From Patescibacteria group bacterium (GTDB lineage: Bacteria > Patescibacteriota > Microgenomatia > CAYGWK01): a stretch of 64,000 bases of DNA. Both the position numbers and the translations under genes were made by a program. The stretch covers positions 57,120 to 121,119 of the forward strand of contig JBMORX010000009.1 in NCBI GenBank assembly GCA_049322615.1, written 5' to 3'. The notes under the pieces were generated by a model, which saw only the letters and a list, made by a program, of their open reading frames with translations, did not search any database and had not been told where the DNA came from. This document shows, piece by piece, positions 1,122-44,926 of this stretch. How positions within the stretch are numbered: position 1 is the stretch's first letter; every line of letters starts with the position of its first letter.

Positions 1122-3170
1122 TTAATTTGGTTCGATGGGTTTGAGGGTGAATCTTTTGAGTTTTTCTTGCAGAGCAGGGAACTGGTTTAATTTGTCGATA
1201 ACCGACTCGGCGGCTTGGCGGGTTTGCTTAATAAGCCCCAGGTCAGTAAACGAGGCGACTCTTAAATCGGGAAATCCGTGTTGGGCGGTGCCATAGATTT
1301 CTCCAGGACCGCGAAGTTTTAAATCGAGTTCTGCCAGCTCTGCCCCAATGTACATTTTTTCCATAGCTTTAAGACGCTGAATTGCCCTTCCTTCGGTCAC
1401 CTCGGTGAAAAGGAGACAGAAAGACTGTTTGACGCTCCGGCCTACCCTGCCCCGAAGTTGGTGAAGCTGAGCCAAACCAAATCTGTCCGCAGCCTCAATC
1501 ATCATAATCGTCGCCTGGGGAATATCGATTCCGACCTCAACCACCGGAGTTGAAACAAGAACATCAAGAGTGCCCTGGCGAAATCTGTCAATTACTTCAT
1601 CTTTTTCTTTGCTTTTTAGTCTACCGTGTAAAAGTCCAAGTTTAAGGTCCGGAAAGATTTTTTTTGAAAGATTCTCAAACTCTACCGTTGCCGCTTTAAT
1701 AGACTTTAATGTTTCGCTTTCCTCAATTAAAGGACAAATAATAAAAGCCTGCTCGCTTGTCCCTTTTACCCTTTGTCTGATCCAGTTGTAGGCAGGCTGC
1801 CTTTTTATTGGCGGCACGACCCAGGTTTTTATTCTTTGTCTTCCCGGAGGCATCTCATCAAGAACTGAAAGGTCTAAATCTCCATACAAGGTAAGAGCAA
1901 TAGTTCTCGGGATTGGGGTGGCGGTCATGGTTAAAATGTGAGGGCTGGAGCCTTTCTTGATTAGCTCTCCTCTCTGTTCTACTCCAAAGCGGTGTTGTTC
2001 ATCAATGATGACAAGCCCAAGATTTTCAAATTTAATCCCTTTTTGGATTAGGGCATGGGTGCCGATATAAACATTGGGTGGGAAGTGGGAAGTGGGAAGT
2101 GGGAAGTGTTTTTTGCTTCCAGTCAAGAGAGCGATCTTTATTCCAAAGGGAGAAAGAAGTTGGTTTAAGGTCTGGTAGTGCTGGTTTGCCAAAATTTCTG
2201 TTGGCGCCATCAGAACAGACCGGAAGCCATTAAGATAAGCAATGTAGACAGCAATAGCGGCAACCACGGTTTTTCCTGAGCCAACATCGCCTTCTAAAAG
2301 TCGATTCATGGGTTTATCAAAAGCTAGATTGGCGAGGATCTCCCGGAGAGAGCGTTTTTGAGCACCGGTTAATTCGAATGGAAGGCTGTGAATAAAATCT
2401 AAAACTTTTTCCTGATCAATAAAAAATTTATTGGAGAGGGTTTTCTTTTGCCAATCTTGTTTTCTCTTCAAGCCTGCCAGTTGGATTAAGAAAAGTTCGT
2501 CAAAGGCGAGACGATTCCTTGCCTGTTCTGCCTGGATTTTATTTTCAGGAAAGTGGATCCAGCGTAAAGCAGGTGGCAAATTGAGTAAATTATATGTTTG
2601 AGTAATCTCTTTCGGCAAAAAATCATTTATGGATGGTAATATCTGTTCGAGTAATGGAGCAATTCGGGAACGAAGCCATTTTGAGGAAACGCCATAAGTT
2701 TCTGGATATATTGGGACTAGTCGACCTGTGTGGATAGCTTTCTGTTGTCTGTCTTCTGTTATCTGTTTTCTGAGTAGTTCATACTCTGGGGAAACCATGA
2801 CAATATTTCTACCAAACCAGTCTACTTTACCCGAGAGATTATACCACTCCCCTACTTTGATAGTTTTAACTAAAAACGGCTGGTTAAACCAAACGATTTC
2901 AATTTTGTCTGTGCTGTCCGCTACTTCCGCTTTTTGAATTTTTTTGCCAGATCGGGTGTATTCGTTTTTAATTGAAAGAACCTGACCTTTAATGGTGAGC
3001 GTTTCTCCAGGCTGGACTCTTGAAATGTCGGAGACCAAAGAGAAATCTTCGTAGCGGTGAGGGAAATGATAAATTAAATCTTCAACCGTTTTTATGCCAA
3101 GCTTTGAAAGTCTTTTGGCAAAAATCGGTCCAACCATATAGAGTTTAGAAACTGGGGTAGATAAGTCCAT
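1122..3170 (-). CDS. recG: ATP-dependent DNA helicase RecG
   Basis: Walker A GDVGSGKT and DEQHRFG helicase motifs; 682 aa. Confidence 0.9.
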   Translation of the reverse strand: MDLSTPVSKLYMVGPIFAKRLSKLGIKTVEDLIYHFPHRYEDFSLVSDISRVQPGETLTIKGQVLSIKNEYTRSGKKIQKAEVADSTDKIEIVWFNQPFLVKTIKVGEWYNLSGKVDWFGRNIVMVSPEYELLRKQITEDRQQKAIHTGRLVPIYPETYGVSSKWLRSRIAPLLEQILPSINDFLPKEITQTYNLLNLPPALRWIHFPENKIQAEQARNRLAFDELFLIQLAGLKRKQDWQKKTLSNKFFIDQEKVLDFIHSLPFELTGAQKRSLREILANLAFDKPMNRLLEGDVGSGKTVVAAIAVYIAYLNGFRSVLMAPTEILANQHYQTLNQLLSPFGIKIALLTGSKKHFPLPTSHFPPNVYIGTHALIQKGIKFENLGLVIIDEQHRFGVEQRGELIKKGSSPHILTMTATPIPRTIALTLYGDLDLSVLDEMPPGRQRIKTWVVPPIKRQPAYNWIRQRVKGTSEQAFIICPLIEESETLKSIKAATVEFENLSKKIFPDLKLGLLHGRLKSKEKDEVIDRFRQGTLDVLVSTPVVEVGIDIPQATIMMIEAADRFGLAQLHQLRGRVGRSVKQSFCLLFTEVTEGRAIQRLKAMEKMYIGAELAELDLKLRGPGEIYGTAQHGFPDLRVASFTDLGLIKQTRQAAESVIDKLNQFPALQEKLKRFTLKPIEPN

Positions 3171-3354: not shown

Positions 3355-4635
3355 TTATTGCTGATTAGCGCTGATTTTCAAGAATTTTCTTTTTCCAACT
3401 TTTATAATCATTCCGTCTTTAATAGTAATTGGTAATTGGTAATTGGTAATTGGATTGCCATCTATTTCCACTGCTTTCTGTCCGACCAGCCTTTTTGCTT
3501 CGGATCTACTTGTCGCCATGCCTGTACTAACCAGAAGCCCTATTACGTTAACAGAGGATTCTGACATATTGACTACTGGGATGTTGTCAGGTATTTCTTT
3601 TCGTTGAATTTGTCTCTCAAATTTTTTTTCTGCCTGGTGGACTTCGTCTGCGGAATGATAGAGAACCGTGATGTTTCTTGCTAGAATTTTTTTAAGGTCC
3701 ATTGGATGAATATCTCCTGTTTTCCATCGACTAATGAGAGACTTAACTTGTTCAAGAGGCAAGTCTGTTGCTAATTCAAAGAAAATTGGCATCAATTCAT
3801 CAGGGATAGACATTATTTTAAAAAACATGTTTGCTGAGGAATCTAATAAGTCAACAGTATTACCAAGGCTCTTACTCATTTTTTCTTGACCATCAATTCC
3901 TGGAAGATATTTTGTTAAAATGACTTCTTCTGGACGCTGACCAAACGATTTTTGTAAGTCTCGAGTCAGGACGAAATTGAAACGTTGATCAATTCCCCCC
4001 AGCTCCACGTCTGCCTTTACAGCCACTGAGTCATACGCTTGTAAAACAGGATAGAGCATTTCATGGAAAGCCAATACTTTCCCATCCTTCACTCTTTTAG
4101 AAAAAGTTTCATGAGACATTAATTGTCCATAAGTAACTTTTGACATTAATCTAATCAATTTTTCAAGATCAAATTGGCCATACCATTCGGATTGAAGACG
4201 AATCTCGGTTTTGTCGCGATCTAAAATCTTATAAACCTGCTGGAAATATTTTTCTGCATTTCGTTGGACCTCTTCTGCGCTTAATACTTTTCTTGTTGCG
4301 CTCATACCAGAAGGGTCACCTATTCTAGCGGTGTAATCACCGATTATAAAAACGGCTACATGTCCTAATTCCTGAAATTGTTTTAATTTTCTGATTGGAA
4401 CTGCATGTCCAATATGGGCAGACCGCATAGTGGGATCAATGCCGTATTTAACTCTAAGAGGTTTTTTTTCTAGAAGACGGTCTTTTAACCCTTGTTCTGT
4501 AATTATGTCTGCAACGCCTCGTTTTAGAATTTCATTTTCTAAATCTCGCTTTTCATCTTCTTGAAAACTATTCAAACCTAATGGCTGAGTCTCTTTATTA
4601 TTGTGGGTCATTTTTTTCTTTTTGTGTTTTAACAT
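3355..4635 (-). CDS. tyrS: tyrosine--tRNA ligase with C-terminal S4-like domain
   Basis: class I HIGH (AHIGHAVP) and KMSKS (KMSKSLGN) motifs; 426 aa. Confidence 0.88.
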   Translation of the reverse strand: MLKHKKKKMTHNNKETQPLGLNSFQEDEKRDLENEILKRGVADIITEQGLKDRLLEKKPLRVKYGIDPTMRSAHIGHAVPIRKLKQFQELGHVAVFIIGDYTARIGDPSGMSATRKVLSAEEVQRNAEKYFQQVYKILDRDKTEIRLQSEWYGQFDLEKLIRLMSKVTYGQLMSHETFSKRVKDGKVLAFHEMLYPVLQAYDSVAVKADVELGGIDQRFNFVLTRDLQKSFGQRPEEVILTKYLPGIDGQEKMSKSLGNTVDLLDSSANMFFKIMSIPDELMPIFFELATDLPLEQVKSLISRWKTGDIHPMDLKKILARNITVLYHSADEVHQAEKKFERQIQRKEIPDNIPVVNMSESSVNVIGLLVSTGMATSRSEAKRLVGQKAVEIDGNPITNYQLPITIKDGMIIKVGKRKFLKISANQQ

Positions 4636-6563: not shown

Positions 6564-7852
6564 TCAGGTTTTCGACCTGTTCTTCGCAAATAACTGGCAG
6601 GATAATTTTCATTAGGCTTAAGATGAATCTTCAAAAATTTGCCATCTTTTCCTAGGCGAATCCGCCGGTATTCTTCTTGAGGATTTCGAATAGTAAACTT
6701 TTCAATTTTTTTCCAATCCGGGCGGATACCAAGACCTTTTCCTCGTATAGGTAGAAAATTTTTAGTCTGCGGATCGAAAAGAAATTTCTCTTTAATCAGA
6801 TGTTTCTCATCACGAAACCAATCTGTTGAGGGTTCCCAACCATCACCCGGTAGAGTAGTTGTTGCTAAAGTAGCGGCTGCTTGTTGGTCATAGGCCCGAC
6901 CGATAGCTGTAGGAAAAGTCCCCCCCACCATATTTTTAGTTTTTTCCTGAGTCATCGGAAGAATAGCTTTTTCAATCTCTTGGGCATGATAAAGCCCCCC
7001 CACTTTATGTATCTTAAAATTTAAAGAAAGATTAGCTTTTGTGCACTCAACTGCATTTTTTAAGGTGACAAATGATTCATCTGCCATTACCGGTGTTTCA
7101 TATCCGTATTGTCTTAGTGCTTCTTTGGCAAAAACAAGCCCTTCAATATTGCTCTCTTCTTTTGTGGGTTGTTCCATGAAAAGGAGAGAAGAAAGATTGA
7201 CCCCCATTTTTTTTAAAATCAAAACCAATTCTTTAAATTCTTCCGGTTCGTATCGAGCATTGAAATCAAGAACGAAAGGAATTTGTTTCTCACAAGATAA
7301 CAATGCTACAGCTTTAATTGTTGCAGTATCTTCCTCTTTTGTTTTACCAACTTTAGGTTTAGGAATAAAACCATGTTGAAATTTTCCTTCAACTTCAGCA
7401 ATTAGTAATGCTGTCTCGCTTTGAAAAGAAATACTGGCAAGCGCTTGCCCCCCCAGCCTTTTCTGTCCATACATTTCTAAAATTGACTTTTCATCCATTT
7501 GACCATAAAGGTCATCTAAGGCCATATTTAAAGCAGTGAAAGCAGCTGGAAATCGTTCAAGCAAAGCCCTTCTTAGAGCCTTATCAGTTAGTATACTTTC
7601 TCTTTCTTCAACATTTCTCCCCTCAATTTCTAGTCGTGATAAGGCCCAATATATATCCCAAGCGTCGTAGGTGGAGAAGGGGAAGTCAATACTGGCTTCG
7701 CCGATTCCCTCCATCATTCCAGATTCATCTAAGGCCTTGATTATGAACAATACCCGTGGTAGTTTTTCTAATGCCCCGAATCCTAAAGGGAATGGCCGTT
7801 CCAGATCAATTCCAAGAAGGTATGGTTTAGTTTCTAAAATTTCGTAGCGCAT
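6551..7852 (-). CDS. enolase-superfamily enzyme (mandelate racemase / muconate lactonizing / dipeptide epimerase-like)
   Basis: KPKVGK, LDFNARY, FMEQP, PVMADES and KIHKVGG blocks match MR/MLE metal-ligand regions; 13-nt overlap with the next gene. Confidence 0.75.
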   Translation of the reverse strand: MRYEILETKPYLLGIDLERPFPLGFGALEKLPRVLFIIKALDESGMMEGIGEASIDFPFSTYDAWDIYWALSRLEIEGRNVEERESILTDKALRRALLERFPAAFTALNMALDDLYGQMDEKSILEMYGQKRLGGQALASISFQSETALLIAEVEGKFQHGFIPKPKVGKTKEEDTATIKAVALLSCEKQIPFVLDFNARYEPEEFKELVLILKKMGVNLSSLLFMEQPTKEESNIEGLVFAKEALRQYGYETPVMADESFVTLKNAVECTKANLSLNFKIHKVGGLYHAQEIEKAILPMTQEKTKNMVGGTFPTAIGRAYDQQAAATLATTTLPGDGWEPSTDWFRDEKHLIKEKFLFDPQTKNFLPIRGKGLGIRPDWKKIEKFTIRNPQEEYRRIRLGKDGKFLKIHLKPNENYPASYLRRTGRKPDWNL

Positions 7853-10174: not shown

Positions 10175-12775
10175 ATGTCTTGGAAAAGGATTTGGAAAAG
10201 AAGAATTTCCCAACTTGGGGCTTATGCTTCACCTTCTCCTTACCGGCGGATTTCTGGGATCAGATTTATCTCAAATCTTTCCCTTTTAGGCTTTCTGGCA
10301 ATTGTTATCCTGACTTTTATCACCGCTTTTCTCTTTATTTGGTACGCCAAGGATTTACCAAGACCAGATAAGATTGTCCGCCGAGAAGGATTTTCCACCA
10401 AGATTTATGATCGCCAGGAGAATCTTCTATATGATGTTTTCAGTACCCAACGCCGGACGCCGGTTGAACTTTCCGAAGTTCCTTTATATCTGAGGGAGGC
10501 GACAATTGCCATTGAAGATAAAGATTTCTATAAACATCAAGGCTTTGATCCTAAAGGTTGGCTTAGGGCAGTCTACAACATCTTTATCCATCGCAAACTT
10601 CAAGGAGGTTCAACTTTAACTCAGCAATTGGTGAAAAATGTTTTACTTTCCTCTGAACGGACCCTGACCCGGAAAATTAAAGAATTTATTTTAGCAGTCC
10701 AGATTGAGAGAAAATATACTAAAGATCAAATTTTACAAATGTATTTAAATGAAGCCCCCTATGGTGGGACAGCCTGGGGGGTTGAGGCTGCCGCCGAGGT
10801 TTATTTTGGAAAGAAAGTTTCCCAACTAACGCTTGTTGAGTCAGCTATTTTAGCCGGTCTACCGCAGCGACCATCGCTTTATTCTCCCTTTGGTCAGGAT
10901 AAAGAAAGCTATAAATGGCGAACCGAGCAGGTTTTGCGCCGAATGAGAGAAGATGGATATATCTCCCGTGAACTTGAAATTGCTGCCAAAAAAGAGATCG
11001 CTAAAGTTGAGTTTGCCCCAAAAGGAACAAGTTTTAAGGCTCCCCATTTTGTCATGTATGTTAAAAAATTACTTGAAGAACGCTACGGCGAGAGGATGGT
11101 TGAACAGGGAGGACTTAAAGTGGTGACTACTTTGGACCTCGATCTTCAAGAAAAAGCCCAAGTTGCGGTATCAGAAGAGATTACTAAAGTGGAAAAACTC
11201 CATATAACAAATGGAGCAGCCTTGGTTTTAGACCCCAAAACCGGAGAGATTCTCGCCATGGTAGGCTCAAAAAACTATGATGATCCAAATTATGATGGCA
11301 AAGTTAATGTCACTTTATCTTTGCGTCAACCTGGTTCAGCCATAAAGCCAGTTACTTATGCGACTGCTTTTAAAAAAGGCTATACTCCTTCAGCCCTTCT
11401 TATGGATGTTAAGACTTCATTTCCTGGAGGAGATAAGCCGGAGTATATTCCGGAAAATTATGATGGTAAATTTCATGGTCAGCTTCAGGTTAGATATGCT
11501 CTTGGTAGTTCAATTAATGTCCCGGCAGTTAAAATGCTGGCTCGGGTTGGACTTCGAGATATGCTTGAGCAAGCCTATGATATGGGATTTACCACTCTTG
11601 AGCCTTCCCAGGAGAACCTTTCTCGTTTAGGTTTATCGGTAACGCTGGGAGGGGGAGAAGTCAGGCTTTTGGATATGGTCTCTGCATACTCTGCTTTTGC
11701 TAATGGAGGATTGAAGGTGATGCCAACGGCGATTTTGAAGGTAACAGATCATTCGGGTAAAGTTTTAGAAGAAGGCAAACCCATTCAAGGTCGAAAGGTC
11801 TTGACCCCAGAGCAGGCATATCTTATCTCAAACATTCTTTCCGATAATGAAGCAAGATTAATTACTTTTGGTTCAAGGTCTTCTCTTTATTTTGAGAATA
11901 GACAAGTAGCGGTTAAGACCGGAACCACTAATGATAAAAAGGATAACTGGACGGTAGGTTGGACCCCAAGTGTTATTGTTGGCGTCTGGGTTGGTAATAA
12001 TGATAATTCTCAAATGAAAGAGGTTGCCTCTGGAGTCTCGGGTGCCTCGCCAATTTGGCGAAGAATTTTATCTACTGCTTTAGAAGGAAAGCCGAAAGAA
12101 GATTTTCCAGTCCCCCAAGGGATCGTCAGTGCCGAGGTAGATAGTGTTTCTGGCTACCGAGCCCATGATGGTTTTCCTTCCCGAGTCGAATATTTTATCA
12201 AAGGCACCGAGCCAACAGGCGAGGATCCGGTGCATGTCAAACTTAAGGTTTGTAAAGCTTCGGGAAAGTTGGCAACTCCAGTTGATATTGCCCGAGGTGA
12301 TTATGAGGAAAAGGAATATTTCGTCTTTAAAGAGGATGATCCGACTGTTGCTCCTGGCGGGGAAAATAAGTGGCAAAAAGGAATTGATGAGTGGTTGGCG
12401 ACTCAATCTGATTCTCGCTACCACCCACCAACTGACTATTGCGAATCGCAAAATCAGATTGAGGTAAGAATAAAAGAGCCAGAAGACCACGCTCAAGTTG
12501 GTTCAAGTTTTAGAGTTAAAGTTGAGCCAGTTTCCTTAAACGAGATTGTTTTGGTTGAGATTTATGTCAACGGAGAAAATAAAGCAAGCATGACCAGTAT
12601 CCCTTATGAGCGCGATTTTACCCTGCCTGACGGAATTTACACCATTAAAGCTCGGGTTCGTGATAGCAAAGGAAACGAAGGCGAAAGAGAAATAAAAATT
12701 GGGGTCAATGTTCCCTGGGATTGGTCTCCTTCGCCCACGCCTACTCCAACCCTTTCCCCCACCCCAACTCCGTAA
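10175..12775 (+). CDS. mrcA: class A penicillin-binding protein (transglycosylase + transpeptidase) with a C-terminal Ig-like extension and PT-rich tail
   Basis: GT51 motifs EDKDFYKHQGFD and GGSTLTQQ; TP motifs SGSAIKP, SIN and KTGTT. Start moved to ATG 10175 (MSWKRIW, TM helix follows); SPSPTPTPTLSPTPTP tail. Confidence 0.88.
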   Translation: MSWKRIWKRRISQLGAYASPSPYRRISGIRFISNLSLLGFLAIVILTFITAFLFIWYAKDLPRPDKIVRREGFSTKIYDRQENLLYDVFSTQRRTPVELSEVPLYLREATIAIEDKDFYKHQGFDPKGWLRAVYNIFIHRKLQGGSTLTQQLVKNVLLSSERTLTRKIKEFILAVQIERKYTKDQILQMYLNEAPYGGTAWGVEAAAEVYFGKKVSQLTLVESAILAGLPQRPSLYSPFGQDKESYKWRTEQVLRRMREDGYISRELEIAAKKEIAKVEFAPKGTSFKAPHFVMYVKKLLEERYGERMVEQGGLKVVTTLDLDLQEKAQVAVSEEITKVEKLHITNGAALVLDPKTGEILAMVGSKNYDDPNYDGKVNVTLSLRQPGSAIKPVTYATAFKKGYTPSALLMDVKTSFPGGDKPEYIPENYDGKFHGQLQVRYALGSSINVPAVKMLARVGLRDMLEQAYDMGFTTLEPSQENLSRLGLSVTLGGGEVRLLDMVSAYSAFANGGLKVMPTAILKVTDHSGKVLEEGKPIQGRKVLTPEQAYLISNILSDNEARLITFGSRSSLYFENRQVAVKTGTTNDKKDNWTVGWTPSVIVGVWVGNNDNSQMKEVASGVSGASPIWRRILSTALEGKPKEDFPVPQGIVSAEVDSVSGYRAHDGFPSRVEYFIKGTEPTGEDPVHVKLKVCKASGKLATPVDIARGDYEEKEYFVFKEDDPTVAPGGENKWQKGIDEWLATQSDSRYHPPTDYCESQNQIEVRIKEPEDHAQVGSSFRVKVEPVSLNEIVLVEIYVNGENKASMTSIPYERDFTLPDGIYTIKARVRDSKGNEGEREIKIGVNVPWDWSPSPTPTPTLSPTPTP

Positions 12776-12805: not shown

Positions 12806-13219
12806 TTGAGGGAAAATGGTACAATTTTTCGGCAAATATTTTATTTTAATAGAATGAGTATAAGCAAAGAACGCCTCCCAAGGTTGCCAAAAGGATTGCG
12901 TGTCTACATCCGGCAGGTTAAAGCCGGGGCACGAAAAACAGGGGAAGACTGGGGAGACAAGGCTCTTCCAGAACTTTGTCTTTCGGATCTTTTAACACTT
13001 GTCCGACGAAGTGGTCAGGGAACTCAACGTTTCAAAGAGGCGATTGCAGCTGTTTTCACTGATACCGATAATTTGGATTCATTGATGAGGCTCCTTGAGG
13101 TTTCTCAAGAATTTGGTTTTCCGACCAGCTCAAACAATCATGCTCTTTTTGAAGCCACCCAGCGGGCGGTGATAAGGCAAATAGGTGAGCTTAGGAAGAA
13201 AAAGCCTCAAGAAGCCTAA
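12806..13219 (+). CDS. hypothetical protein
   Basis: ORF track; start may be the internal Met at 12854. Confidence 0.35.
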   Translation: MRENGTIFRQIFYFNRMSISKERLPRLPKGLRVYIRQVKAGARKTGEDWGDKALPELCLSDLLTLVRRSGQGTQRFKEAIAAVFTDTDNLDSLMRLLEVSQEFGFPTSSNNHALFEATQRAVIRQIGELRKKKPQEA

Positions 13220-15330
13220 AGAGTTTTAAGAATAGCGCCAAATTTGCTTTTTACTGCGGAAATTATTTTTTCTCTTATTTTCTCTACCTCTTTATCGGTC
13301 AAAGTTTTCTTAGGGTGCTGATAGATAATTCTGAAAGTTCGAGTGTCTCCATGAATATCGATTAATTCAACACTTTGAATAATTGAACTAGACACTTTAA
13401 TTAATTGAAGTAGATCTCCAATTAAAGTCTTTGGTGGAACAACAAAAGCCAAATCCTCAACAATAGCAGGATATTTGGGAATGGGGGTAAAGGTTTTAGT
13501 TTTTTTGGCAAGTAAAATTAAAGCTTCAAAATCAAGGTCAAGAACAACCGTTTTGTTTAAAATTTCGAAATTTGCCAAAACCCGAGGGTTGACTTCACCA
13601 ATTGTTCCTAAGACATTATTGGTCGTTTCCATAACCGCTGCTTTTCCCTGGCTAAAATAGGGCTCTCTTCCTACCCAAGGCTTAAAATGGATATCCTCAA
13701 TTCCCAAATGCTCGAAAATAATCTCCGAGATGCCCTTTAAGTAGGAAAAGTCTTCCCCAGTTACCAAACAAGTAAGTCTGGTTTTTTCCAGAGGGAGATT
13801 TCCTTTTTGGGGAAGATAAACATTAGCCATCTCAAAAATTTTCACTTTGGGAAAATTGGCTTGGTTTTGGGCGACTGTTTTAAGCAGACTCTCAAGAAGG
13901 GAAATCCTTAAGTATTCAAGATCGCTGGTGAGCGGGTTTTTGAGTTTAAGATGGTCTTCGGTCTTTAGTCCAGTTTTTTGAATTGAGTCTTTTCCGATGA
14001 AGGAATAATTGTAAACTTCGGAGAAGCCTTTGCCAACAAGCACCTCTTTAATTTTATTCTCATATTCAAAGAACATCCCTATTTTTCCTTTTTGAGGTTG
14101 AGGTTGGGGTAAAAGACCGAACAAAGGATGAAGCGGAGGAATATTGCCGGGAAGTCTAAAGTAGCCATAGATTCTGGCGATTTCCTCAATTAAGTCTTCT
14201 TCGTGAGATATGTCTTGGGCGCGAAAGCTTGGAACGGAGAAAGTGAGAAGTGCCGTGCGTCGCCAGAGGCTACTCGCCGTTGCGTAGCCACGCTTTGGCG
14301 GAGCGCGGTGCCGGCGGCGCGAGAAATGAGAAGTGAGAAGTGAGAAGCCAAGAGATTCAAGGATACTGATGATTTTATTCTTTGGAATTTCGATGCCGAT
14401 GATTTTATTGACTAAATCAAGATCCAGTTTGATTTTTTTGCTTTTTTGGGGATTAGGATAAATATCTATTAATTTACTGGCGACCCTTCCTTGGCAGAGG
14501 TCTTCCATTAGCTTTACTCCTTGAGAAATGACAGGAATAATTCCTTCTAAATCAATCCCTCTTTCAAATCTCACCGCTGCCTCGGTCCGGTGAGCCAGAG
14601 CCATCGACGTCTGTCTGATTCTGACGGGATTATAAGCCTGAACGAAGAAAAGGACTCTTTTAGTGTTTTCGTCTATTTGGCTATTTTCCGCACCCATGAT
14701 ACCGCAAAGATCAATTAATCTTTCTTTTCCATCCTCGATAACGATATCTCCACCTGGAAGGGTCCGGGTAGCCCCATCGAGAGTGGTAATTTTTTCTCCT
14801 GGTCGTGACAGCCTCATAATCATTTTTGCCCCAAGAATTTTGTCGTAATCAAAAGTATGGATTGGTTGTCCGGTTTCGATCATTAAATAATTGGAAATAT
14901 CAACCACATTGGAAAGTGGTCTGATGCCAACTTTTTCTAATCTCTCAGCCATCCATTTTGGAGAAGGGGCAACCTTTACCTGGTCGATAACGACAGCAGA
15001 AAACCGAGGACAGAGAGTCTCATCTTTGATTTCTACGGAAAGATTAAATTTTGGATTTTTCATCTCTAGAGGAAGAATCTTGGGTGATGCAAATTCCGCT
15101 TTTATACCGTATCCTGAAAGAGCCGCCGCCGCTTCCCGGGCGATGCCGCGAACCGATAAACAATCATAGCGATTGACAGTTATCTCGATTTCCAAAATCT
15201 GGTCATCTTTTTCCGAATGGATTTTTTCCACTGATTGGCTACAAAGAGAAAGAACTTCAGCCACCTTCTCTGGGCTTGCTTCAGTTTTAAGAAAGTCTTT
15301 CAACCAAGAAAAAGGAATAAGAATATTCAT
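13216..15330 (-). CDS. pheT: phenylalanine--tRNA ligase beta subunit carrying an in-frame 37-aa insertion encoded by a GC-rich repeat
   Basis: B3/B4, B5 and FDX-ACB-like blocks; lies downstream of pheS; insertion at 14237-14348. Confidence 0.88.
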   Translation of the reverse strand: MNILIPFSWLKDFLKTEASPEKVAEVLSLCSQSVEKIHSEKDDQILEIEITVNRYDCLSVRGIAREAAAALSGYGIKAEFASPKILPLEMKNPKFNLSVEIKDETLCPRFSAVVIDQVKVAPSPKWMAERLEKVGIRPLSNVVDISNYLMIETGQPIHTFDYDKILGAKMIMRLSRPGEKITTLDGATRTLPGGDIVIEDGKERLIDLCGIMGAENSQIDENTKRVLFFVQAYNPVRIRQTSMALAHRTEAAVRFERGIDLEGIIPVISQGVKLMEDLCQGRVASKLIDIYPNPQKSKKIKLDLDLVNKIIGIEIPKNKIISILESLGFSLLTSHFSRRRHRAPPKRGYATASSLWRRTALLTFSVPSFRAQDISHEEDLIEEIARIYGYFRLPGNIPPLHPLFGLLPQPQPQKGKIGMFFEYENKIKEVLVGKGFSEVYNYSFIGKDSIQKTGLKTEDHLKLKNPLTSDLEYLRISLLESLLKTVAQNQANFPKVKIFEMANVYLPQKGNLPLEKTRLTCLVTGEDFSYLKGISEIIFEHLGIEDIHFKPWVGREPYFSQGKAAVMETTNNVLGTIGEVNPRVLANFEILNKTVVLDLDFEALILLAKKTKTFTPIPKYPAIVEDLAFVVPPKTLIGDLLQLIKVSSSIIQSVELIDIHGDTRTFRIIYQHPKKTLTDKEVEKIREKIISAVKSKFGAILKTL
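14237..14348. repeat. GC-rich 74-nt hairpin core flanked by GAGAAGT/GGGAAGT heptamers, in frame in pheT
   Basis: core gtgccgtgcgtcgccagaggctactcgccgttgcgtagccacgctttggcggagcgcggtgccggcggcgcgag matches 56210-56312 exactly by eye; nested palindrome GGCTAC..GTAGCC. Confidence 0.85.
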
Positions 15331-15331
15331 T

Positions 15332-16366
15332 TTAAAATTGGTTAATAAATCTTAAATCAGGTTCATACAGGGGTCTTATGTCCGAAAGATTAAGTCCTGA
15401 TTTCATGAAATATGTTCTTTCCACCCCCCAGCCAAAGGCAAACCCAGAGTATTTTTTAGGATCGATACCGCCGTTTTTGAGAACTTCGGGATGAACCATA
15501 CCCGAACCCCCTAGCTCATGCCAACCACTTTTGCAAACTTTGCAGCCTCTTCCCAAGCAAAGAGGACAGTTGATATCTACCTCAAACGATGGCTCGGTAA
15601 ATTGAAAATGGAAGGGTCTAAGTCTTATTTTCCTTTTAGGACCGAAGAAATTTATGGCGAAGTAGTCAAAGACCCCTTTTAAATGAGTAATATTAATTCC
15701 CTCATCGATGACTAACCCTTCAAACTGATGAAAGGTTGGGGTATGGGTAGCATCCCAATTAGGACGACCACAGCGACCAATATTAATCATTCTTATCGGA
15801 GGTTTAACTCTTTGCATCTCTCTAAGTTGTCCCGAAGAAGTATGGGGAGTAATCACCATTTGTCCGTATTTGGGACTGGCTTTTTCTTCAATGAAAAAAC
15901 TTTCATAGTCGTCTCTAGCGGGATGGGTTTTGGGCATATTGAGACCATCGAAAGCGTACCATTCCCATTCAACCTCTGGATAACTGACTCGAACAAAACC
16001 GATTTTCTCCAAAACAGCGGAAATTTCTCTGATGGCTTGGGTGAGAAGGTGAAGGTGTCCTTGATCTAGTTTTTCTCCTGGTGCGGTGACGTCAAGCCAT
16101 TCCCTTTCAAACTCTCCCATTTTTTCTTGGAGTTTACCCTGAGCTTGCCGAAGGGTTTCTTCGATCGCTTTTTTGGCATCATTGGCCAGCCTGCCAACGT
16201 CAACCCTTTTTTCTAAGGGAATTCTGGGAATTTCTTTAATTATTAAAGTGAGTTTTCCTTTTCTGCCGAGATAAGCCTGACGAAGTCTTTCTAATTCTTC
16301 TTGATTTTTAGCGGAAACTATTTGAGCCAAGGCTTCATTTTTAAGATTTAAAATCTTTTCTTCCAT
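15332..16366 (-). CDS. pheS: phenylalanine--tRNA ligase alpha subunit
   Basis: class II motifs including GFAFGWGVER; 344 aa. Confidence 0.9.
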   Translation of the reverse strand: MEEKILNLKNEALAQIVSAKNQEELERLRQAYLGRKGKLTLIIKEIPRIPLEKRVDVGRLANDAKKAIEETLRQAQGKLQEKMGEFEREWLDVTAPGEKLDQGHLHLLTQAIREISAVLEKIGFVRVSYPEVEWEWYAFDGLNMPKTHPARDDYESFFIEEKASPKYGQMVITPHTSSGQLREMQRVKPPIRMINIGRCGRPNWDATHTPTFHQFEGLVIDEGINITHLKGVFDYFAINFFGPKRKIRLRPFHFQFTEPSFEVDINCPLCLGRGCKVCKSGWHELGGSGMVHPEVLKNGGIDPKKYSGFAFGWGVERTYFMKSGLNLSDIRPLYEPDLRFINQF

Positions 16367-16550
16367 AAGGCTATTATATACTAAAAACCTCCCTTTTAGG
16401 GAGATTCTTTTTGCGTTTTTGCGGTCCTAAAAATGCCAAAACCAACCTCCCCTTGGGCTTAAAGTGTCCTAAAGAAAAATGACACTTTGTCGGGGTTGGT
16501 TGGTCTTCGCATTGGAAATTATTATAGCAGACTATTTGAGCCTGTCAAGA
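16367..16550 (-). promoter_or_regulatory. pheST promoter plus leader-peptide transcription attenuator
   Basis: on the minus strand: TTGACA, 16 nt, TATAAT; leaderless ORF; long hairpin with FFF codons in its loop; a second hairpin CTCCCTAAAAGGGAG followed by TTTTT just before pheS. Confidence 0.7.
16459..16512 (-). CDS. Phe-rich leader peptide MRRPTNPDKVSFFFRTL (pheM-like)
   Basis: 17 codons plus stop, three consecutive Phe codons TTT TTC TTT, sits inside the attenuator. Confidence 0.6.
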   Translation of the reverse strand: MRRPTNPDKVSFFFRTL

Positions 16551-16575
16551 GGCAATTTACTCGGCGAATCCAGGA

Positions 16576-16618
16576 TAGTCCTGGAATCCTACTTGACACA
16601 GGATAATCCTGGGTTTTA
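16576..16618. repeat. REP-like element family A (paired hairpins CCAGGATAGTCCTGG), left flank of transposase 1
   Basis: palindromic units; the same family recurs at 17278, 24046, 26245 and 57032. Confidence 0.8.
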
Positions 16619-16629: not shown

Positions 16630-17286
16630 GTGGTGCAGTATTATCATCTTTATAACCGCGGTGTAGACAAACGGGTTATTTTTCTTGACGATACTGATAG
16701 ACAGCGATTTCTTGATGCTGTTAGGTTAGCAAGACTTTCGAATTCGCCCAGGCTTTCTTGGTTAAAAAGACAAATTAAAATTGGTAACATTTCTCCAACA
16801 CACCTTGAAAAATTGGAAGAAAAATATGGACCACCTCTTTTAGATATCGTTACCTACTCTCTAATGCCTAATCACTTCCACTTTCAAGTTAAGGAACTGA
16901 TAGAAGATGGAGTGAGTCAGTTTTTTCGAAAACTGGGAACAAGCTATGTAATGTATTTTAATATTAAACACGAAAGAACAGGACGATTGTTTGAATCCCA
17001 ATATAGGTCTGTGTTAATAGGAACTGACGAGCAATTAATTCACCTTTCTCGTTATATCCATACCAATCCTTACAATTCTTCCAAGAGAGACATTTCTCTT
17101 GAACAACTAAAAACTTATTCTTGGACGAGTCTCCCTGATTATCTAGGTACTCGTAAGCAGCCATTTTGTGACCCTACGGAAGTTATGTCATTTTTTAACT
17201 CACCTGAAGATTATTGGGAATTTTTAAAGGGAAATATTGATAAAGAAGAAGTTTTGCCCCCCGAGCTACTACTCGATCCAGGATAG
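16630..17286 (+). mobile_element. IS200/IS605-type HUH Y1 transposase, REP-associated (RayT-like)
   Basis: HUH motif LMPNHFHF and a downstream Tyr (RYIHTNPY); 218 aa; REP-A copies on both sides. Confidence 0.8.
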
Positions 17287-17326
17287 CCCTGGATTCGTGC
17301 CTAGTCCAGGATAGTCCTGGATTTTT
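17278..17326. repeat. REP-like element family A, right flank of transposase 1
   Basis: ccaggatagccctggattcgtgcctagtccaggatagtcctgg. Confidence 0.8.
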
Positions 17327-21604: not shown

Positions 21605-21790
21605 AAGTCAAGCCCCGCACCAAGCTTACCTCGCGCCGCGAATTGCGACCCGTCAGACGGGTCTGGCACGTTCGACGTGCCGTTTGCGCTCGCGAGGGGG
21701 CGCTGGTGCGGGGCGCAGACCCCGCATACACGCCCTTGCGACGCGAACACGAAGTATTCGGGAGCAAGTAAGTGTTGTGCGGGGTCAAAC
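21605..21790. repeat. GC-rich structured intergenic element (family E) with terminal inverted repeats and several internal hairpins
   Basis: GC-rich island in an AT-rich genome; ends CCCCGCAC..GTGCGGGG; hairpins GACCCGTCAGACGGGTC, GCACGTTCGACGTGC and TGCGGGGCGCAGACCCCGCA; shares CCCGCAGACCCCG and CGGGGTCAA with 37125-37245. Confidence 0.6.
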
Positions 21791-23935: not shown

Positions 23936-24853
23936 ATGAGACTGTCAAGAAAAGAATTAAGAAAGAGAGCACAGAAAGCTTGGAAACTTCTAAATCCTTG
24001 TCGGGTTTGTCCGAGGATTTGCGGGATCAACCGTCAGAGGCCAAATTCCAGGATAGTCCTGGAATCGTGCCTAGCCCAGGATAGTCCTGGATTTTGTCGG
24101 ATGGGGGTAAAACCACGGATAAGTTCCTATCATGCCCATTTTGGCGAAGAATCTTGCCTTGTCGGTACAAATGGTTCAGGAACAATTTTCTTTTCCTCTT
24201 GCAATCTTGCCTGTGTTTTTTGTCAAAATTGGGAAATTTCCCAATTGAGAGAAGGAGAGGAAGTGGAAACTGAGGATTTAGCTGAGATGATGGTTTTTCT
24301 TCAAGAGCGTGGTTGTCATAATATAAATCTTGTCTCCCCTACTATTTGGGTGCCCCAGATTCTGAAGGCTTTGGTGGTTGCAATTGATCAAGGATTACAC
24401 CTCCCATTGGTTTATAACACTGGTGGATACGATTCAGTTGAGACCCTAAAACTTCTTGATGGGGTTATCGATATTTATATGCCAGATATTAAATATTCAG
24501 ATTCAAAAATCGCCCTGAAATATTCCCTGGTTCCAAACTATTGGAAGGTGGTTCAGAAAGCAGTTGCCGAAATGCATCGCCAGATTGGAGATTTGGTGAT
24601 TAGTGACCAGGGACTAGCGACTAGGGGTTTGTTAATCAGGCATTTGGTTTTACCAGAAGGTTTAGGGGGAACAGAAAAAGTGATGAAATTTATCGCCTCT
24701 CTCTCCAAAAATTCTTATGTCAATATTATGGACCAATACTATCCAACCAATAAAGCCCATCTTTATCCGGAAATCAATCGAAAAATTACTCCCGAAGAAT
24801 ATCATAAAGCGGTTGAAACAGCTAAAGGGTATGGTCTGCACCGATTTAATTAA
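23936..24853 (+). CDS. radical SAM enzyme (PflX / AmmeMemoRadiSam-like) with an in-frame REP-A insertion near the N-terminus
   Basis: CNLACVFCQNW CxxxCxxC motif; N-terminal CxxCPRxC..GFC pattern interrupted by 15 aa (NSRIVLESCLAQDSP) encoded by REP-A at 24046-24092. Confidence 0.75.
   Translation: MRLSRKELRKRAQKAWKLLNPCRVCPRICGINRQRPNSRIVLESCLAQDSPGFCRMGVKPRISSYHAHFGEESCLVGTNGSGTIFFSSCNLACVFCQNWEISQLREGEEVETEDLAEMMVFLQERGCHNINLVSPTIWVPQILKALVVAIDQGLHLPLVYNTGGYDSVETLKLLDGVIDIYMPDIKYSDSKIALKYSLVPNYWKVVQKAVAEMHRQIGDLVISDQGLATRGLLIRHLVLPEGLGGTEKVMKFIASLSKNSYVNIMDQYYPTNKAHLYPEINRKITPEEYHKAVETAKGYGLHRFN
24046..24092. repeat. REP-like element family A copy in frame inside the radical SAM CDS
   Basis: ccaggatagtcctggaatcgtgcctagcccaggatagtcctgg. 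Confidence 0.8.
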
Positions 24854-26209: not shown

Positions 26210-26244
26210 TACTATGTAGCGATGAAAAAATGATTCCAGTAATT

Positions 26245-26287
26245 CCAGGATAGTCCTGGAATCGTGCCTAACCCAGGATAGTCCTGG
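26245..26287. repeat. REP-like element family A copy, followed by 3 tandem copies of CTGGATTTGCA
   Basis: ccaggatagtcctggaatcgtgcctaacccaggatagtcctgg. Confidence 0.8.
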
Positions 26288-26344
26288 ATTTGCACTGGAT
26301 TTGCATACTGGATTTGTAAGGTGGCGTTGGTGCGGGGTAAAGCC

Positions 26345-28006: not shown

Positions 28007-28767
28007 AGATTAAGTTCTAATCCGTCGTAAGCAATGTGGAAGCTTTTGCCGCCTTTTTCCTGAACAAATTTCTCTAGATCCTGGTGTTTTCCGGTTTTAT
28101 GACCAATATGGGTAAAGTAAACTTGTCGTGCTTTCAGTTTTTTGCCAAGAACCAATCCCTCAATAATACTTTCGTGAATTCTGGTTTGTCCGGCTTTTCC
28201 TAAAGAGGAGCCATCCAAAATTAAAAGATGGACATCTCTGCAAGTTTTTTCTTGGGATTTAGGGAGCGACCTTATATCTGGAAGATAGCAAACGAGTTTA
28301 TCCCCTTTCATCTTAAGTCCCCAAGTTGGAAAATGGTCATGTTCAATGGGAATAAAGGTAAATTTAACTTTGTCTATTTCAAAAACTTCAGGCGGACGAA
28401 TGGTCTCAGGTAAAAATGGGTCAAGGGGGTATTTGTGAATCTGCCGTAGTCCAACCAACGTTTCTTGAGTGGCATAAAGTTTAAGCTCTGGTTGGTGATT
28501 GTAAAGATGAGTTAGGTCGTAAAATCCCAAGATATGGTCAGGGTGGGCATGGGTAAGAATTAGAGCCTTTAGATTTGTAATTTGTAATTTGTAATTTGTA
28601 ATTTGGGAGTAGATATCTGGTCCGGCGTCGATTAAAACAGTGTCATTAACCAAAATTACTGGCCTGGTTCTTCTATCTTTGGGGTCTTTGGAAGTACAAA
28701 TTTCACAAGTACAGCCAATCCGTGGTAGCGGCCAGCCAGCAGAAGTTCCCAAGAAAAGAATTTTCAT
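28003..28767 (-). CDS. MBL-fold metallo-hydrolase
   Basis: THAHPDH motif; contains an in-frame ATTTGTA x4 repeat (28573-28600). Confidence 0.8.
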   Translation of the reverse strand: MKILFLGTSAGWPLPRIGCTCEICTSKDPKDRRTRPVILVNDTVLIDAGPDIYSQITNYKLQITNLKALILTHAHPDHILGFYDLTHLYNHQPELKLYATQETLVGLRQIHKYPLDPFLPETIRPPEVFEIDKVKFTFIPIEHDHFPTWGLKMKGDKLVCYLPDIRSLPKSQEKTCRDVHLLILDGSSLGKAGQTRIHESIIEGLVLGKKLKARQVYFTHIGHKTGKHQDLEKFVQEKGGKSFHIAYDGLELNL

Positions 28768-31963: not shown

Positions 31964-32719
31964 TCAAGTTTTTTGGCAGAGGACAAAAATTGAGGGACCA
32001 AAAAAAGGTGAGAAGTGGGAAGAAAGAAGTGAGAAGTATTTCTCAAGAAATAGGAGGATTGGCAGAGGAATAATTTTTTTGACTAGAGGGTGGCGGAAGT
32101 TTGAGACTGAAAGAGAAGAGGAAACCTTAAAACCTGCTTTTTCCAACTCTCGATAAATAAATTGAGGATGATGGTTGAGAAAGGGAATGGTTGAAGCGGC
32201 GATGGATTCGAGTGAGCGCTGGTCTGAAGGTTCTAGATTTGAAGTGAAGCCAAAATCACCTCTTATCCAGGCACGAAGACGAGCCCGGAAATGAATTTTG
32301 TTAGCAAATTCCAAGATTAAAAAACCATTTGGTTTTAGGACCCTGGAAGCCTCAAGGAACACTTTTTGGGGGTTTTGAAGGTGATGGACCACCCGAATCA
32401 TTAAAGCAACATCAAAACTGCCATCTTGCCCTGGAAGCCTCTCCCCTCTCCCCTTTCTAAATTCAATATTTTTAAACTTTTTTAGATTTTTTTGAGCAAT
32501 GTTTAATAATTTTTCTGAAGGATCAACTAAAAGAGAGTGTTTAAAAACTGGAGCATAAACTTCGGCAAGCCTGCCAAATCCCCCACCAATGTCTATTAAA
32601 CTGTCCTTTTTGGGAATTTTTAAAAAAAATTTCTTTAAGGCAATTTTTTCTGCCTCATCCTCATACTCTCTTCCCTGCCAAAACTTGGGGTAGTTGTAAA
32701 AATCGTATGGTACAGCCAC
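31964..32719 (-). CDS. class I SAM-dependent methyltransferase
   Basis: motif I LIDIGGGFGRLAE; GAGAAGT/GGGAAGT heptamer stretch in frame near the C-terminus (32005-32040). Confidence 0.8.
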   Translation of the reverse strand: MAVPYDFYNYPKFWQGREYEDEAEKIALKKFFLKIPKKDSLIDIGGGFGRLAEVYAPVFKHSLLVDPSEKLLNIAQKNLKKFKNIEFRKGRGERLPGQDGSFDVALMIRVVHHLQNPQKVFLEASRVLKPNGFLILEFANKIHFRARLRAWIRGDFGFTSNLEPSDQRSLESIAASTIPFLNHHPQFIYRELEKAGFKVSSSLSVSNFRHPLVKKIIPLPILLFLEKYFSLLSSHFSPFFGPSIFVLCQKT

Positions 32720-32734: not shown

Positions 32735-33439
32735 CTAGCGGAGTTCTTGGAGGAATTGGTCAACACAGCGAGCCCACGGTCCACCTTTTTCCACCGAAGG
32801 CGGAGCATATTTTGGCATAATCTGTTCCGGCGTTAGCAAACCCTTATCATAATAGTCTTCTTTTAGGGTTTGGGCTACCCTTTCAATTGCATGTTCCCAA
32901 GAGTAAAATTTCGTCTCGCCGTTCTCAAATCCCCAGCAGTTATACGAACCTTCAGGGATTTTTTTGCAAACATTCGATTCGCATTGGGCAATAGCGACAA
33001 TTAAACCGTAATCTAAACCATATTTTTCTGAAACCGCAAAAATAAAATCAGCGTAAGGAAGAAGGGGCGAATTATATTTCTGCAAATATTTTCTTATTAA
33101 AACTGGTCTGGCATCGGCGGTTGAAATTGCTTGACTGATTGAACCAATCGCCGGAGGAACGCTTAAATAAAGCTCAAGAGGAGTTTTTGAACCCAAAACG
33201 GCGCCTGTTTCGTAAGAGACAAGGGTTGAGAGGTTTTTTGTTTGCCCAATTTGCCAAAGACCAAAGAGGGAAATGGACAAAGTTAAAGGAGCAAAAATTA
33301 AAAAAAGGGCAGTTAAAAATATTTTTCTCATTAAGCAGATCCCGCTCAGCGGGACAGGCTGGTTAAAACGCTTACCTGTAATAAGCAAAGCTTGTTGCTT
33401 CGCAATAACAATACTGACAAAAAAGAAAGGCTTTGTCAA
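32735..33439 (-). CDS. secreted lysozyme-like / peptidoglycan hydrolase-like protein, paralog of 30649..31170
   Basis: see 30649..31170. Confidence 0.5.
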   Translation of the reverse strand: MTKPFFFVSIVIAKQQALLITGKRFNQPVPLSGICLMRKIFLTALFLIFAPLTLSISLFGLWQIGQTKNLSTLVSYETGAVLGSKTPLELYLSVPPAIGSISQAISTADARPVLIRKYLQKYNSPLLPYADFIFAVSEKYGLDYGLIVAIAQCESNVCKKIPEGSYNCWGFENGETKFYSWEHAIERVAQTLKEDYYDKGLLTPEQIMPKYAPPSVEKGGPWARCVDQFLQELR

Positions 33440-33994: not shown

Positions 33995-35292
33995 CCGATA
34001 CCAAAAACCAAGGATTCTTTGAAGCAAGCGGTTGAAAAATGAGGTTTTTTGATTAATTAATTTCCAGGTTTCAAAAACTTTAATCTTGCCTTCGGGTAGC
34101 CCTTCCCAAGAAAAATCAAAGTCTCCAGCAATGCTTGATGTTTCCAAAGTGTAATCAAATGTCCACGTTTCTCCTGGTTTAACTAGAACTCCTTCTGGCA
34201 GTTTCAAATCCGATAATTGCAAACCAGAGGTTTGAGATTTTAGTTTAAATTCTTTTTCTCCCCAAATAGACTGTCCAGTATTTTTTAAAGTAATTTTTCC
34301 CTGATATTGAAAATTTGTCGGTAAAAATGGAAGAAAGAAAAACTCAACAATTTCGTATCTTTCTTCCTGGGCTGGTTCACCTCTGACCTTGCTTAAATTT
34401 TTCACTGCCTCAAACTGCGGATAGGGATTCCCCTCTTTATCAAGCCAAGAAAAGTTTTCAAAAGGAGGAAAAGGATAATTTAAAATAAACGGAGTAACCG
34501 CTACCACCTTTTCATCTTTTAACCAAACATTTTCAAACGCTTGTTTGATAAATTGAGCTGTTACCTCTTTGTTATAAAATTTTTCATTTTTAATTTTTAA
34601 TTTTTCATTTTTGTACGGCCAGCCGGTTTCCGTGATAAAAACCGGTAGATTGAGTTTTAAAACCGAAAGCTCCCATTCATAACCTCTAATCGTGGCTCTT
34701 CCCTTTTGCCAGGGCTTACCGACAAAACCATGATTTGGATAAGAGTGAGAGACCCAACCATCAAGCCGCAAGAATATGCCTGGAACCTCAAAATTTACTT
34801 CTCTAAGAAATTTTGCCTCGTCCATAGTTGAATTTGAATTAGGGGCGGCTTGGTCGAAACCAGCGTTGAGGAGAAAAAAGTCTTCACTTTTTTGCTTAAA
34901 AATGGTAATGGCATTGTCTAAAATCTTGGCGTATTCTTTAGGATTTCTCTCGCTTCCCCATTCTTTGTCATGGTTTGGTTCATTAAAGACAATGAGGTAG
35001 CGATTCTTGACTGGCCAATTAAGACCGTCTAAAAAATTCGCCATTTGGATAATTGTCTCCTCCGTTGGTTTTTTCCAGACCCCTTTTCTTGGTTTCGGTC
35101 ATCTTCTTGAATAACCACGGTTACATATCCCCAATCACCGCTACTTGAATTTACCAGCTCTGCGGCCAGAGGAAGATCTTCTGCTTGAGTGATATGAATA
35201 CCAAATTTGTTGTTTGGGGAAGCCCAGGCTGGTTGAGCAAACCTGGAAAATGATAAAATTAGAAGAATAGTTAATAATTTTTTCATTCGCAA
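33992..35292 (-). pseudogene. secreted glycoside-hydrolase-like protein (GH5-like NEP motif) split into two ORFs by a frameshift at a homopolymer run
   Basis: signal peptide in ORF 35029..35292; VFNEPNH in ORF 33992..35044; frames differ by 1 nt around the A/T run at 35063-35068. Confidence 0.5.
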
Positions 35293-44767: not shown

Positions 44768-44851
44768 TGGCGGAATCGGTATACGCGCAACACTTAAAAT
44801 GTTGTGGGTGTAAAATCACCCATGAGGGTTCGAGTCCCTCCTGGCCCACCA
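44761..44851 (+). tRNA. tRNA-Leu(TAA) with encoded CCA
   Basis: acceptor GGGCTAG/CTGGCCC, anticodon loop CTTAAAA, long variable arm, T loop TTCGAGT. Confidence 0.8.
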
Positions 44852-44852
44852 T

Positions 44853-44926
44853 CGGGGAGTAGCTCAGTTGGTTTAGAGTGCGCGCTTTGGGAGCGTGAGG
44901 CCGGCGGTTCGAATCCGCCCTCCCCG
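44853..44926 (+). tRNA. tRNA-Pro(TGG)
   Basis: acceptor CGGGGAG/CTCCCCG, anticodon loop TTTGGGA, T loop TTCGAAT. Confidence 0.8.

Follow-up and report, generated by a model that had tools for sequence, protein, structure and literature searches.

Small dispersed repeats (SDRs) of the Nostocaceae, as set out by Elhai et al. in 2008, are said to be 21–27 nt long, apparently mobile and often embedded in tandem heptamers. Elements of the IS200/IS605 type and their PATE derivatives insert beside a short specific sequence, in a fixed orientation and without target duplication. The existence of SDRs, the insertion of SDR5 into the HIP1 motif and the restriction of these repeats to Nostocaceae are documented (PMC5861425), and a single-strand mechanism has been described for IS200/IS605 (PMC6006769). 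Rickettsia palindromic elements (RPEs), of about 150 bp, are found in frame in unrelated housekeeping genes at fold-compatible positions, with one conserved peptide frame per family (PMC10969869). Repetitive extragenic palindromes (REPs) are short, GC-rich imperfect palindromes that lie outside genes and are spread by HUH/Y1 transposases (PMC3116915). Heptamers are over-represented among the repeats of bacteria, with runs of approximately four units preferred and a given unit dispersed genome-wide; the known ones are mostly intergenic, and coding regions contain fewer of them than expected (PMC4692102). Here, we describe a 69-nt GC-rich insert (the core) that sits within tandem heptamer arrays in pheT and uvrB, both of them essential genes, in an uncultured Patescibacteria group bacterium. 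Both copies lie in a 64,000-nt stretch of contig JBMORX010000009.1 (positions 57,120 to 121,119), which is referred to as the window throughout. The interpretation that we prefer, and to which we give an even chance, is that heptamer arrays serve as integration sites for the core, which would be a small non-autonomous element; translation would read through it as a disordered loop, and selection would retain those copies that are in frame, free of stops and placed in permissive loops.

A 74-nt string containing the core, described in an earlier note on this DNA as identical in pheT and uvrB, occurs exactly twice in the window, at 14250–14323 and 56227–56300 on the plus strand, without a single mismatch between the copies. 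In dinucleotide shuffles of the window, the string was matched in none of 100 trials. The fully identical tract covers 79 nt (GAAGT, 69 nt and GAGAA), directly outside of which the flanks diverge; a longer tract of 93 nt is 96% identical between the two copies. The insert proper is 69 nt, the remaining 5 nt of the 74-nt string belonging to the heptamer arrays. The GC richness noted before was confirmed with corrected figures, as the core has 74–75% GC (not ~70%) and the window 39.6% (not ~38%). Copy 1 (14252–14320, plus strand, 75% GC) lies inside pheT, which encodes the phenylalanine-tRNA ligase beta subunit (13216–15330, minus strand, 704 aa, MFZ5366328.1). Copy 2 (56229–56297, plus strand) consists of the same 69 nt inside uvrB (54907–57003, minus strand, 698 aa, MFZ5366376.1). 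Both genes are intact, their products exactly match those annotated on a 201,931-nt contig of an NCBI metagenome-assembled genome, and Shapirobacteria and Microgenomates are the nearest named relatives. In each gene the core is translated from the minus strand, in one frame in PheT and in another in UvrB, giving unrelated peptides that match exactly those quoted in the earlier note. Because 69 is a multiple of three and neither of the used frames contains a stop, the host proteins stay intact; with both used frames open, neither ribosomal bypass nor removal at the RNA level is required. On each strand of the core two of the three frames are open, and the third contains TAG. By a rough estimate, ~70% of 23-codon frames at 75% GC would be free of stops by chance, so the open frames need no special explanation.

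The insertion sites were then compared with loci of relatives, which are designated by L-numbers (L001, L002, L003 and so on); L093 comes from the same organism as the window. Compared to its closest orthologs (73–74% identity by BLASTP and 76–77% in the alignment), PheT contains exactly 23 extra residues, and the UvrB insert peptide is absent from all 119 other homologs. At the pheT site, L005 has an uninterrupted run of five units (TCACTAC TCACTAC CCACGAC TCACTAC TCACTTT). At the uvrB site, L001 reads CTTCCC ACTACCC ATCACTC ACTACCC ACTACTA, with no core. The blastn alignments break at the core in both genes, with 79 nt in the window facing 10 nt in L005 for pheT and 81 nt facing 12 nt in L001 for uvrB, a difference of 69 in each case; likewise, the window array length minus 69 nt equals the ortholog array length at both sites. 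Relatives lacking the insert, whose existence the earlier note had presupposed, were thus found for both genes and are 69 nt shorter. Since these core-less orthologs carry arrays of equal length at the same sites, the arrays predate the core, and the heptamer runs are neither target-site duplications nor excision scars.

On the plus strand, the pheT array reads GAGAAAGT GAGAAGT to the left of the core (14237–14251) and GAGAAAT GAGAAGT GAGAAGT GAGAAG to its right (14321–14347; period 7 and 3.9 copies by TRF). In uvrB, the left part is CAGAAGT GGGAAGG GCGAAGT (56208–56228), where L001 has ACTACCC-type units with an equal total length, and the right part is GAGAAGT GGGAAGA (56298–56312). In both genes the core joins between two units, at GAAGT^GAGAA on the plus strand or TTCTC^ACTTC on the sense strand, and in identical orientation. 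No target-site duplication is present at either site, and the junctions are ambiguous by at most 1 nt. Judged from these alignments, a single DNA sequence has genuinely, and recently, been inserted into both essential genes. A barely credible alternative is an error in assembly or binning of the metagenome-assembled genome, by which GC-rich DNA of repeated or foreign origin would have been mis-joined into the two genes. Such an artefact could be entertained as both proteins are known solely from one NCBI contig, and an independent Logan assembly (L093) starts at window position 56717 and covers neither core; however, both joins are exact and keep the frame, and the genes are collinear with their orthologs on both sides apart from precisely 69 extra bases. 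A chimeric join of this kind is not expected twice. The absence of the core from the other datasets searched would fit a mis-join, yet analogous nested inserts are present in independent assemblies of other genomes (L002 and L090).

The positions of the two inserts in the host proteins were mapped onto solved structures. For UvrB, the alignment splits into query residues 2–232 and 265–695, and the array and core together stand in for a ~4-residue turn between two strands (236–239 of 9gy7_E). For PheT, the insert is located at the B5-domain turn that separates '...LGFETTLK' from 'GETLTVNVPS' in 2rhq_B. An AlphaFold2 model of UvrB based on an 80-sequence alignment has a mean predicted local distance difference test (pLDDT) score of 80.8. 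Residues 236–261 of this model fall below 50 and have no secondary structure between the neighboring strands 217–224 and 265–268; the UvrB insert is therein predicted to be a disordered surface loop. Both core sites are beta-turn loops outside the structural cores, in agreement with the surface-loop positions expected from the sequence beforehand. In Microgenomates as a whole, the turn in UvrB is a hot spot for insertions. Peptides with a 7-aa period occupy it in most orthologs, encoded by heptamers whose unit differs by lineage, and several carry longer inserts at the same place. In L002, an ATTAACA-type array in uvrB is split by a different GC-rich palindrome, which forms a 33–34-nt hairpin within a 38-nt GC-rich gap and is significantly stable (z −5.4). 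The uvrB of L003, another Microgenomates bacterium, contains a longer insert (1490–1600) with ends that seem to be short inverted repeats, resembling a miniature inverted-repeat transposable element (MITE). This insert and that of a RecG representative, P0254, encode the permissive-loop peptides 'CHSERSEESP...' and 'VILSGAKNL...'. Peptides like these recur in metagenomic proteins, which suggests a widespread inverted-repeat element that is likewise translated in frame.

The heptamer runs flanking the core, reported earlier as GAGAAGT and GGGAAGT, were recovered, as the pattern GRGAAGT has 11 matches in the window against 0.47 expected. Uninterrupted, in-frame runs without a core are present in two further genes named in the earlier note. 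In recG, (GGGAAGT) x4.4 at 2078–2108 (plus strand) encodes HFPLPTSHFP and sits in a loop that varies in length in an alignment of RecG representatives. In a class I methyltransferase gene, a degenerate run of the GRGAAGT family at 32008–32037 (plus strand) is located near the C terminus. Of the two origins that had been offered for these runs, excision footprints do not stand in view of the equal-length arrays in core-less orthologs, and empty target sites are the better option; the two runs are members of the same array family that stand as unoccupied sites. Perfect period-7 arrays of at least three copies number six in the 64-kb window (94 per Mb), while no perfect array of period 8–12 was found there. 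As a background only, we used 80 uvrB loci among the matches listed, mostly from distant bacteria; these 1.33 Mb around uvrB contain four perfect period-7 arrays (3 per Mb), three of which fall in Patescibacteria loci. In-frame 7-nt arrays are therefore about 30-fold enriched in the window. Including imperfect ones, the window has ~12 period-7 arrays, and every array checked is in frame inside an open reading frame (ORF).

Several in-frame period-7 arrays of four to five copies are built from other units (2739–2772, 3425–3453, 28573–28605, 34578–34612, 47602–47634, 50449–50479 and 61542–61571). Their hosts include recG, tyrS, a metallo-beta-lactamase-fold gene, uvrC, a transglutaminase-like gene and a POR subunit gene, among others. 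For the TTTTTAC array at 50449–50479, both site and unit are conserved in L090 and L091; L004 has CCTATTA there. The ACTTCYC unit (sense strand) is common to five loci within about 70 kb of this genome, the fifth array being located just past the window end in L093, which is 100% identical to window positions 56717–64000. At 12800–12880 of L093, ~5.6 kb beyond the right end of the window, a PPDK-like gene contains, in frame, an inverted pair of arrays of the ACTTCCC family, (GRGAAGT)n TAAAT (TCCCACT)n, so an array can run in either orientation with respect to its gene. Units are also shared within or among other loci, such as ATTAACA three times in L002, AATTTCC and AATTTCA in L065, and ATCAATC in L090, L091, L092 and L005. 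Between genomes, orthologous arrays have the same site and length with a different unit. Because unlinked loci of one genome share a unit, local slippage alone is insufficient to account for the arrays. A broader proposal, which we regard as doubtful, is that the arrays are genome-wide landing pads written by some templated or enzymatic process. A genome-specific 7-nt unit would be laid down in blocks of ~4–5 units in the surface loops of essential genes across Patescibacteria and homogenized across unlinked loci, and the blocks would then serve as integration sites for element families of 24, ~33 and 69 nt. If true, this would imply undescribed array-writing or array-targeting machinery, as well as a new route of loop gain for proteins of reduced genomes.

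Candidate enzymes were sought within the window. Two paralogous RAYT-like HUH/Y1 ORFs, 35% identical to each other, are encoded at 16630–17286 (ORF 1, plus strand) and 54171–54821 (ORF 2, minus strand). ORF 1 matches the NCBIfam model for the REP-associated tyrosine transposase, NF047646, with an E value of 3e-6, below the curated cut-off. ORF 2 matches Pfam Y1_Tnp with 30.6 bits, above the cut-off, and NF047646 with an E value of 1.7e-12, again below the curated cut-off. Both ORFs have a hairpin repeat family of their own on either side (D2 and D4, respectively), and each family has further dispersed copies. D2 is a 51-nt double-hairpin repeat containing TCCAGGATAGTCCTGGA twice (single-stranded DNA fold z −3.7). 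It flanks ORF 1 at 16566–16616 and 17274–17324 and recurs at 24044–24094, 26241–26291 and 57043–57093, the last copy lying in the uvrB–lexA spacer. ORF 1 together with the D2 repeats has the look of a REP/RAYT system, here in a genome of the Patescibacteria. The D4 hairpin repeat, TTGCACCCCNGGGGTGA...CACACCTGCGGA, flanks ORF 2 as direct copies at 54146–54183 and 54860–54897. A solo D4 copy at 51507–51544 is read in frame within uvrA, where it falls in the linker between domains; this linker exceeds that of the L004 ortholog by 7 aa. Each copy of the core is 1.4–2.3 kb away from a RAYT-like gene, for which a rough estimate gives a chance of ~3%. These neighboring genes were considered as the cognate transposases of the core and rejected, since their flanking hairpins are unrelated to it. 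Pfam scans of 30 other window ORFs revealed no further transposase or reverse transcriptase. As a candidate class, an HUH-type mechanism would fit three features of the core: the lack of a duplication, the specific junction and the fixed orientation.

ACTTCYC arrays were already in frame in the beta-turn loops of pheT and uvrB, and the 69-nt core was added later at a unit boundary. Under the preferred interpretation, the core would have been copied in trans by an enzyme acting on single-stranded or structured repeat DNA, most plausibly an HUH/Y1 transposase (IS200-like or RAYT-like), at least two of which are encoded in this genome. Purifying selection would then remove all copies except those that keep the frame, contain no stop and lie in permissive loops of the essential genes, and the element itself would be selfish or neutral, not functional.

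A number of results weigh against such an element. The pairings named in the earlier note exist, but shuffled sequences of matched composition fold just as stably, both as RNA and as single-stranded DNA. The plus-strand RNA folds at −38.3 kcal/mol (z −0.7 against dinucleotide shuffles), the minus-strand RNA at −30.2 kcal/mol (z 0.0) and the single-stranded DNA with z +0.2. As the predicted hairpin is no better than shuffles, the sequence does not indicate a hairpin-dependent enzyme. Direct reading of the core ends (GCCGTGCG... and ...GGCGGCGC) reveals no terminal inverted repeats, and the core has no similarity to the D2 and D4 hairpins. No further copy is present in about 70 kb of the genome, including ~6.2 kb (L093) beyond the window. 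The inner 24-mer of the core had no match in viral, genome and metagenome collections, and a loop-tolerant pattern of the core gave four matches in metagenomes, all of them chance matches with no likeness outside the pattern. The two known copies also lie in the same unit family and the same register, and templated copying predicts identical junctions. The size of the core family therefore rests on n = 2 copies, and the dispersed family that had been envisaged is not borne out in the ~70 kb of genome covered, nor in the three public collections searched. Searches by blastn against plasmids and phages yielded only sub-significant GC-rich matches of 26–30 nt. A 15-nt match to the core in L004 was considered as a sign of a relative and rejected as a chance match in ordinary coding sequence.

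These points bear on an explanation that dispenses with a dedicated element or enzyme, and which is a real possibility although on balance not the probable one. The core could have a single origin, such as GC-rich DNA captured where an array had broken or slipped, and have been transferred to the second gene by ectopic gene conversion or template switching through ACTTCYC homology. Templated copying would automatically keep the unit family, register and orientation that the two copies have in common. The five ACTTCYC arrays within about 70 kb supply the dispersed homology, and units common to unlinked loci of one genome suggest inter-locus exchange. A core with two copies, no hairpin signal and no terminal repeats is also what this explanation would lead one to expect. 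However, identity stops 5 nt from the core on each side and the neighboring units differ, so a conversion tract must have ended in 5-nt microhomology on both sides. The explanation is further challenged by a sister element of 24 nt, which lies in ATCAATC and TTTTTAC arrays in L090 and free of any array in the window.

This 24-nt element, TTGCG[A/C]AGCAACAAGCT[T/C]TGCTTA, provides a second and independent case of nesting. It is found at three places in L090, namely in the ATCAATC array of uvrB, in the TTTTTAC array at the N terminus of a transglutaminase-like gene and at the edge of a third array (copies at 6721–6744, 10574–10597 and 16364–16387). L090 and L091 are collinear over 21.6 kb with 88% identity, and in L091 the uvrB and transglutaminase-like arrays are both uninterrupted, with no 24-nt element. 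In the window, an exact copy at 33382–33405 (minus strand) lies upstream of a likely start codon with no array around it. L093 has three tandem copies in the PPDK-like gene (13439–13510), and L092 has one copy (69–92). As a dispersed element, the 24-nt sequence TTGCGAAGCAACAAGCTTTGCTTA is common to at least three related genomes. Because the units of its host arrays are unrelated and some copies are free of any array, the element cannot be carried by flanking homology; its distribution favors an insertion mechanism for the class of nested elements. The center of the core (TTGCGTAGC--CACGCTTTG) resembles the 24-nt element, with shuffles reaching the score in 7 of 5,000 and 1 of 5,000 trials, a likeness that may serve as a weak lead only.

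Retention of the core for a useful function, whether through a structured plus-strand (antisense) RNA, an element of the mRNA or a basic surface loop in two nucleic-acid-binding proteins, is highly unlikely. A long hairpin of 62 nt can form only on the plus-strand RNA, through five G-U pairs, and the plus strand is antisense to both genes; its lower folding energy (−38.3 versus −30.2 kcal/mol) would suit a functional RNA, yet the fold does not surpass shuffles. At the gathering threshold of Rfam 15, the whole window gave only tRNAs and the core was unmatched; at E values up to 10, a few weak snoRNA-type matches flank the pheT copy and none falls on the core. In PheT, the peptide has a high content of Arg, Lys and His, as a basic loop would, but the PheT and UvrB peptides are entirely different, the insert is absent from all sampled orthologs and the UvrB insert is predicted to be disordered. 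The 100% identity of the two copies could be read as constraint, and the earlier note had argued from the two frames that selection acts on the DNA or RNA element. Such selection is not supported, as recent copying accounts equally well for the identity of the two copies, and the single sequence variant offers no covariation.

If the preferred reading is correct, tiny repeats colonize core housekeeping coding sequence in the ultra-small, gene-dense Patescibacteria, which have little intergenic space. They would do so in two layers, with in-frame heptamer arrays in permissive loops and small inserts subsequently nested inside. The system would be a testable case for the persistence of selfish DNA in streamlined genomes, for the growth of protein loops and for the origin and homogenization of heptanucleotide repeats, a question that arises in cyanobacteria too. 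In practical terms, the inserts alter protein lengths and can break assemblies or alignments of marker genes used for phylogeny of the candidate phyla radiation. The main interest lies in a pervasive array system, common to several loci, in Patescibacteria coding sequences.

Other features of the window were recorded alongside. Tandem pairs of a 20–22-nt dyad-symmetric motif, CACTTTAATTAATTGAAGTG, are present in pheT (13371–13412) and uvrA (52998–53038). The pairs encode 'LQLIKV' in both genes, with length unchanged relative to orthologs; they could represent a binding site or have arisen by chance or gene conversion. Between a DUF5660 gene and that of trigger factor lies a 140-nt intergenic stretch (21612–21751) with 70–85% GC and no Rfam match at E values up to 1, which may be an unannotated structured RNA. 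At 36446–42554 lies a low-GC block (32–36%), perhaps an acquired island, with an N6/N4 DNA methylase, an NYN-domain protein, a DUF3800 protein and several ORFs without a family. A dense cluster of 10 tRNA genes occupies 43539–45498, with extra tRNA-like 3' fragments at 44186–44216 and 45177–45207 that were not called as genes. From 62803 to 64000 and onward (L093 6087–8936), an AMP-binding (acetyl-CoA-synthetase-like) gene encodes 949 aa, among them an intein that contains a LAGLIDADG domain; the L090 and L091 orthologs encode 569 aa and have no intein.

The arrays and the core can now be set against the systems described at the outset. A literature search for in-frame heptamer arrays, dispersed small inserts or REP/RAYT systems in Patescibacteria found none. 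The arrays resemble the GGGAATC repeats of Xanthomonas and the GGGGA(C/T)T repeats of Nostoc in that one unit is dispersed, and the (GGGAAGT)x4 run of recG is G-tract-like. Unlike those repeats, every array checked here is intragenic and in frame, and most units cannot form G-quadruplexes. The position of the core between units of pre-existing heptamer arrays, like that of the 24-nt element in L090, parallels the heptamer nesting reported for SDRs, and the 24-nt element, here and in L090, is within the size range reported for them. The core differs from SDRs in its 69-nt length, 75% GC and Patescibacteria host, and its arrays and inserts are translated inside essential genes.

The likeness to RPEs proposed in the earlier note is a reasonable analogy, because the core is an in-frame insertion into two essential genes at surface turns; ORFs stay intact and the positions are loops, as with RPEs. 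Membership does not follow, given the size (69 nt versus about 100–150 bp), the two frames with two unrelated peptides in place of a single conserved peptide frame, and the taxon. The core is also GC-rich and lies in heptamer arrays. RPEs occur in many copies per genome; for the core, two copies are known in the ~70 kb covered. With REP/REPIN–RAYT systems the locus has in common two RAYT-like ORFs with their own hairpin repeats. As for the palindrome typical of REPs, pairings exist in the core with z −0.7 as RNA and +0.2 as DNA. Unlike REPs, both core copies are intragenic, and the RAYT-like ORFs are flanked by D2 and D4, not by the core. As in IS200/IS605 elements and PATEs, the core lacks a target duplication and is joined as GAAGT^core^GAGAA on the same strand, a likeness based on n = 2 copies in one array family. 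The subterminal hairpins of that group have no significant counterpart in the core, and the Y1 ORFs of the window have other ends. With neither terminal inverted repeats nor a target-site duplication, the core is unlike a classical MITE.

Structured repeats within coding regions are also known from organelles. In yeast mitochondria, GC clusters and bypass elements occur inside genes, and the bypass elements are skipped by the ribosome. Coding palindromes able to form secondary structure are tolerated in protein genes of the AT-rich mitochondrial genome of Nematomorpha (PMC6649704). Those palindromes encode conserved protein regions, whereas for the core, plain read-through as a non-conserved loop is enough. 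From these comparisons, the core appears to work like SDRs, RPEs and elements of the REP and IS200 types while being a member of none of them.

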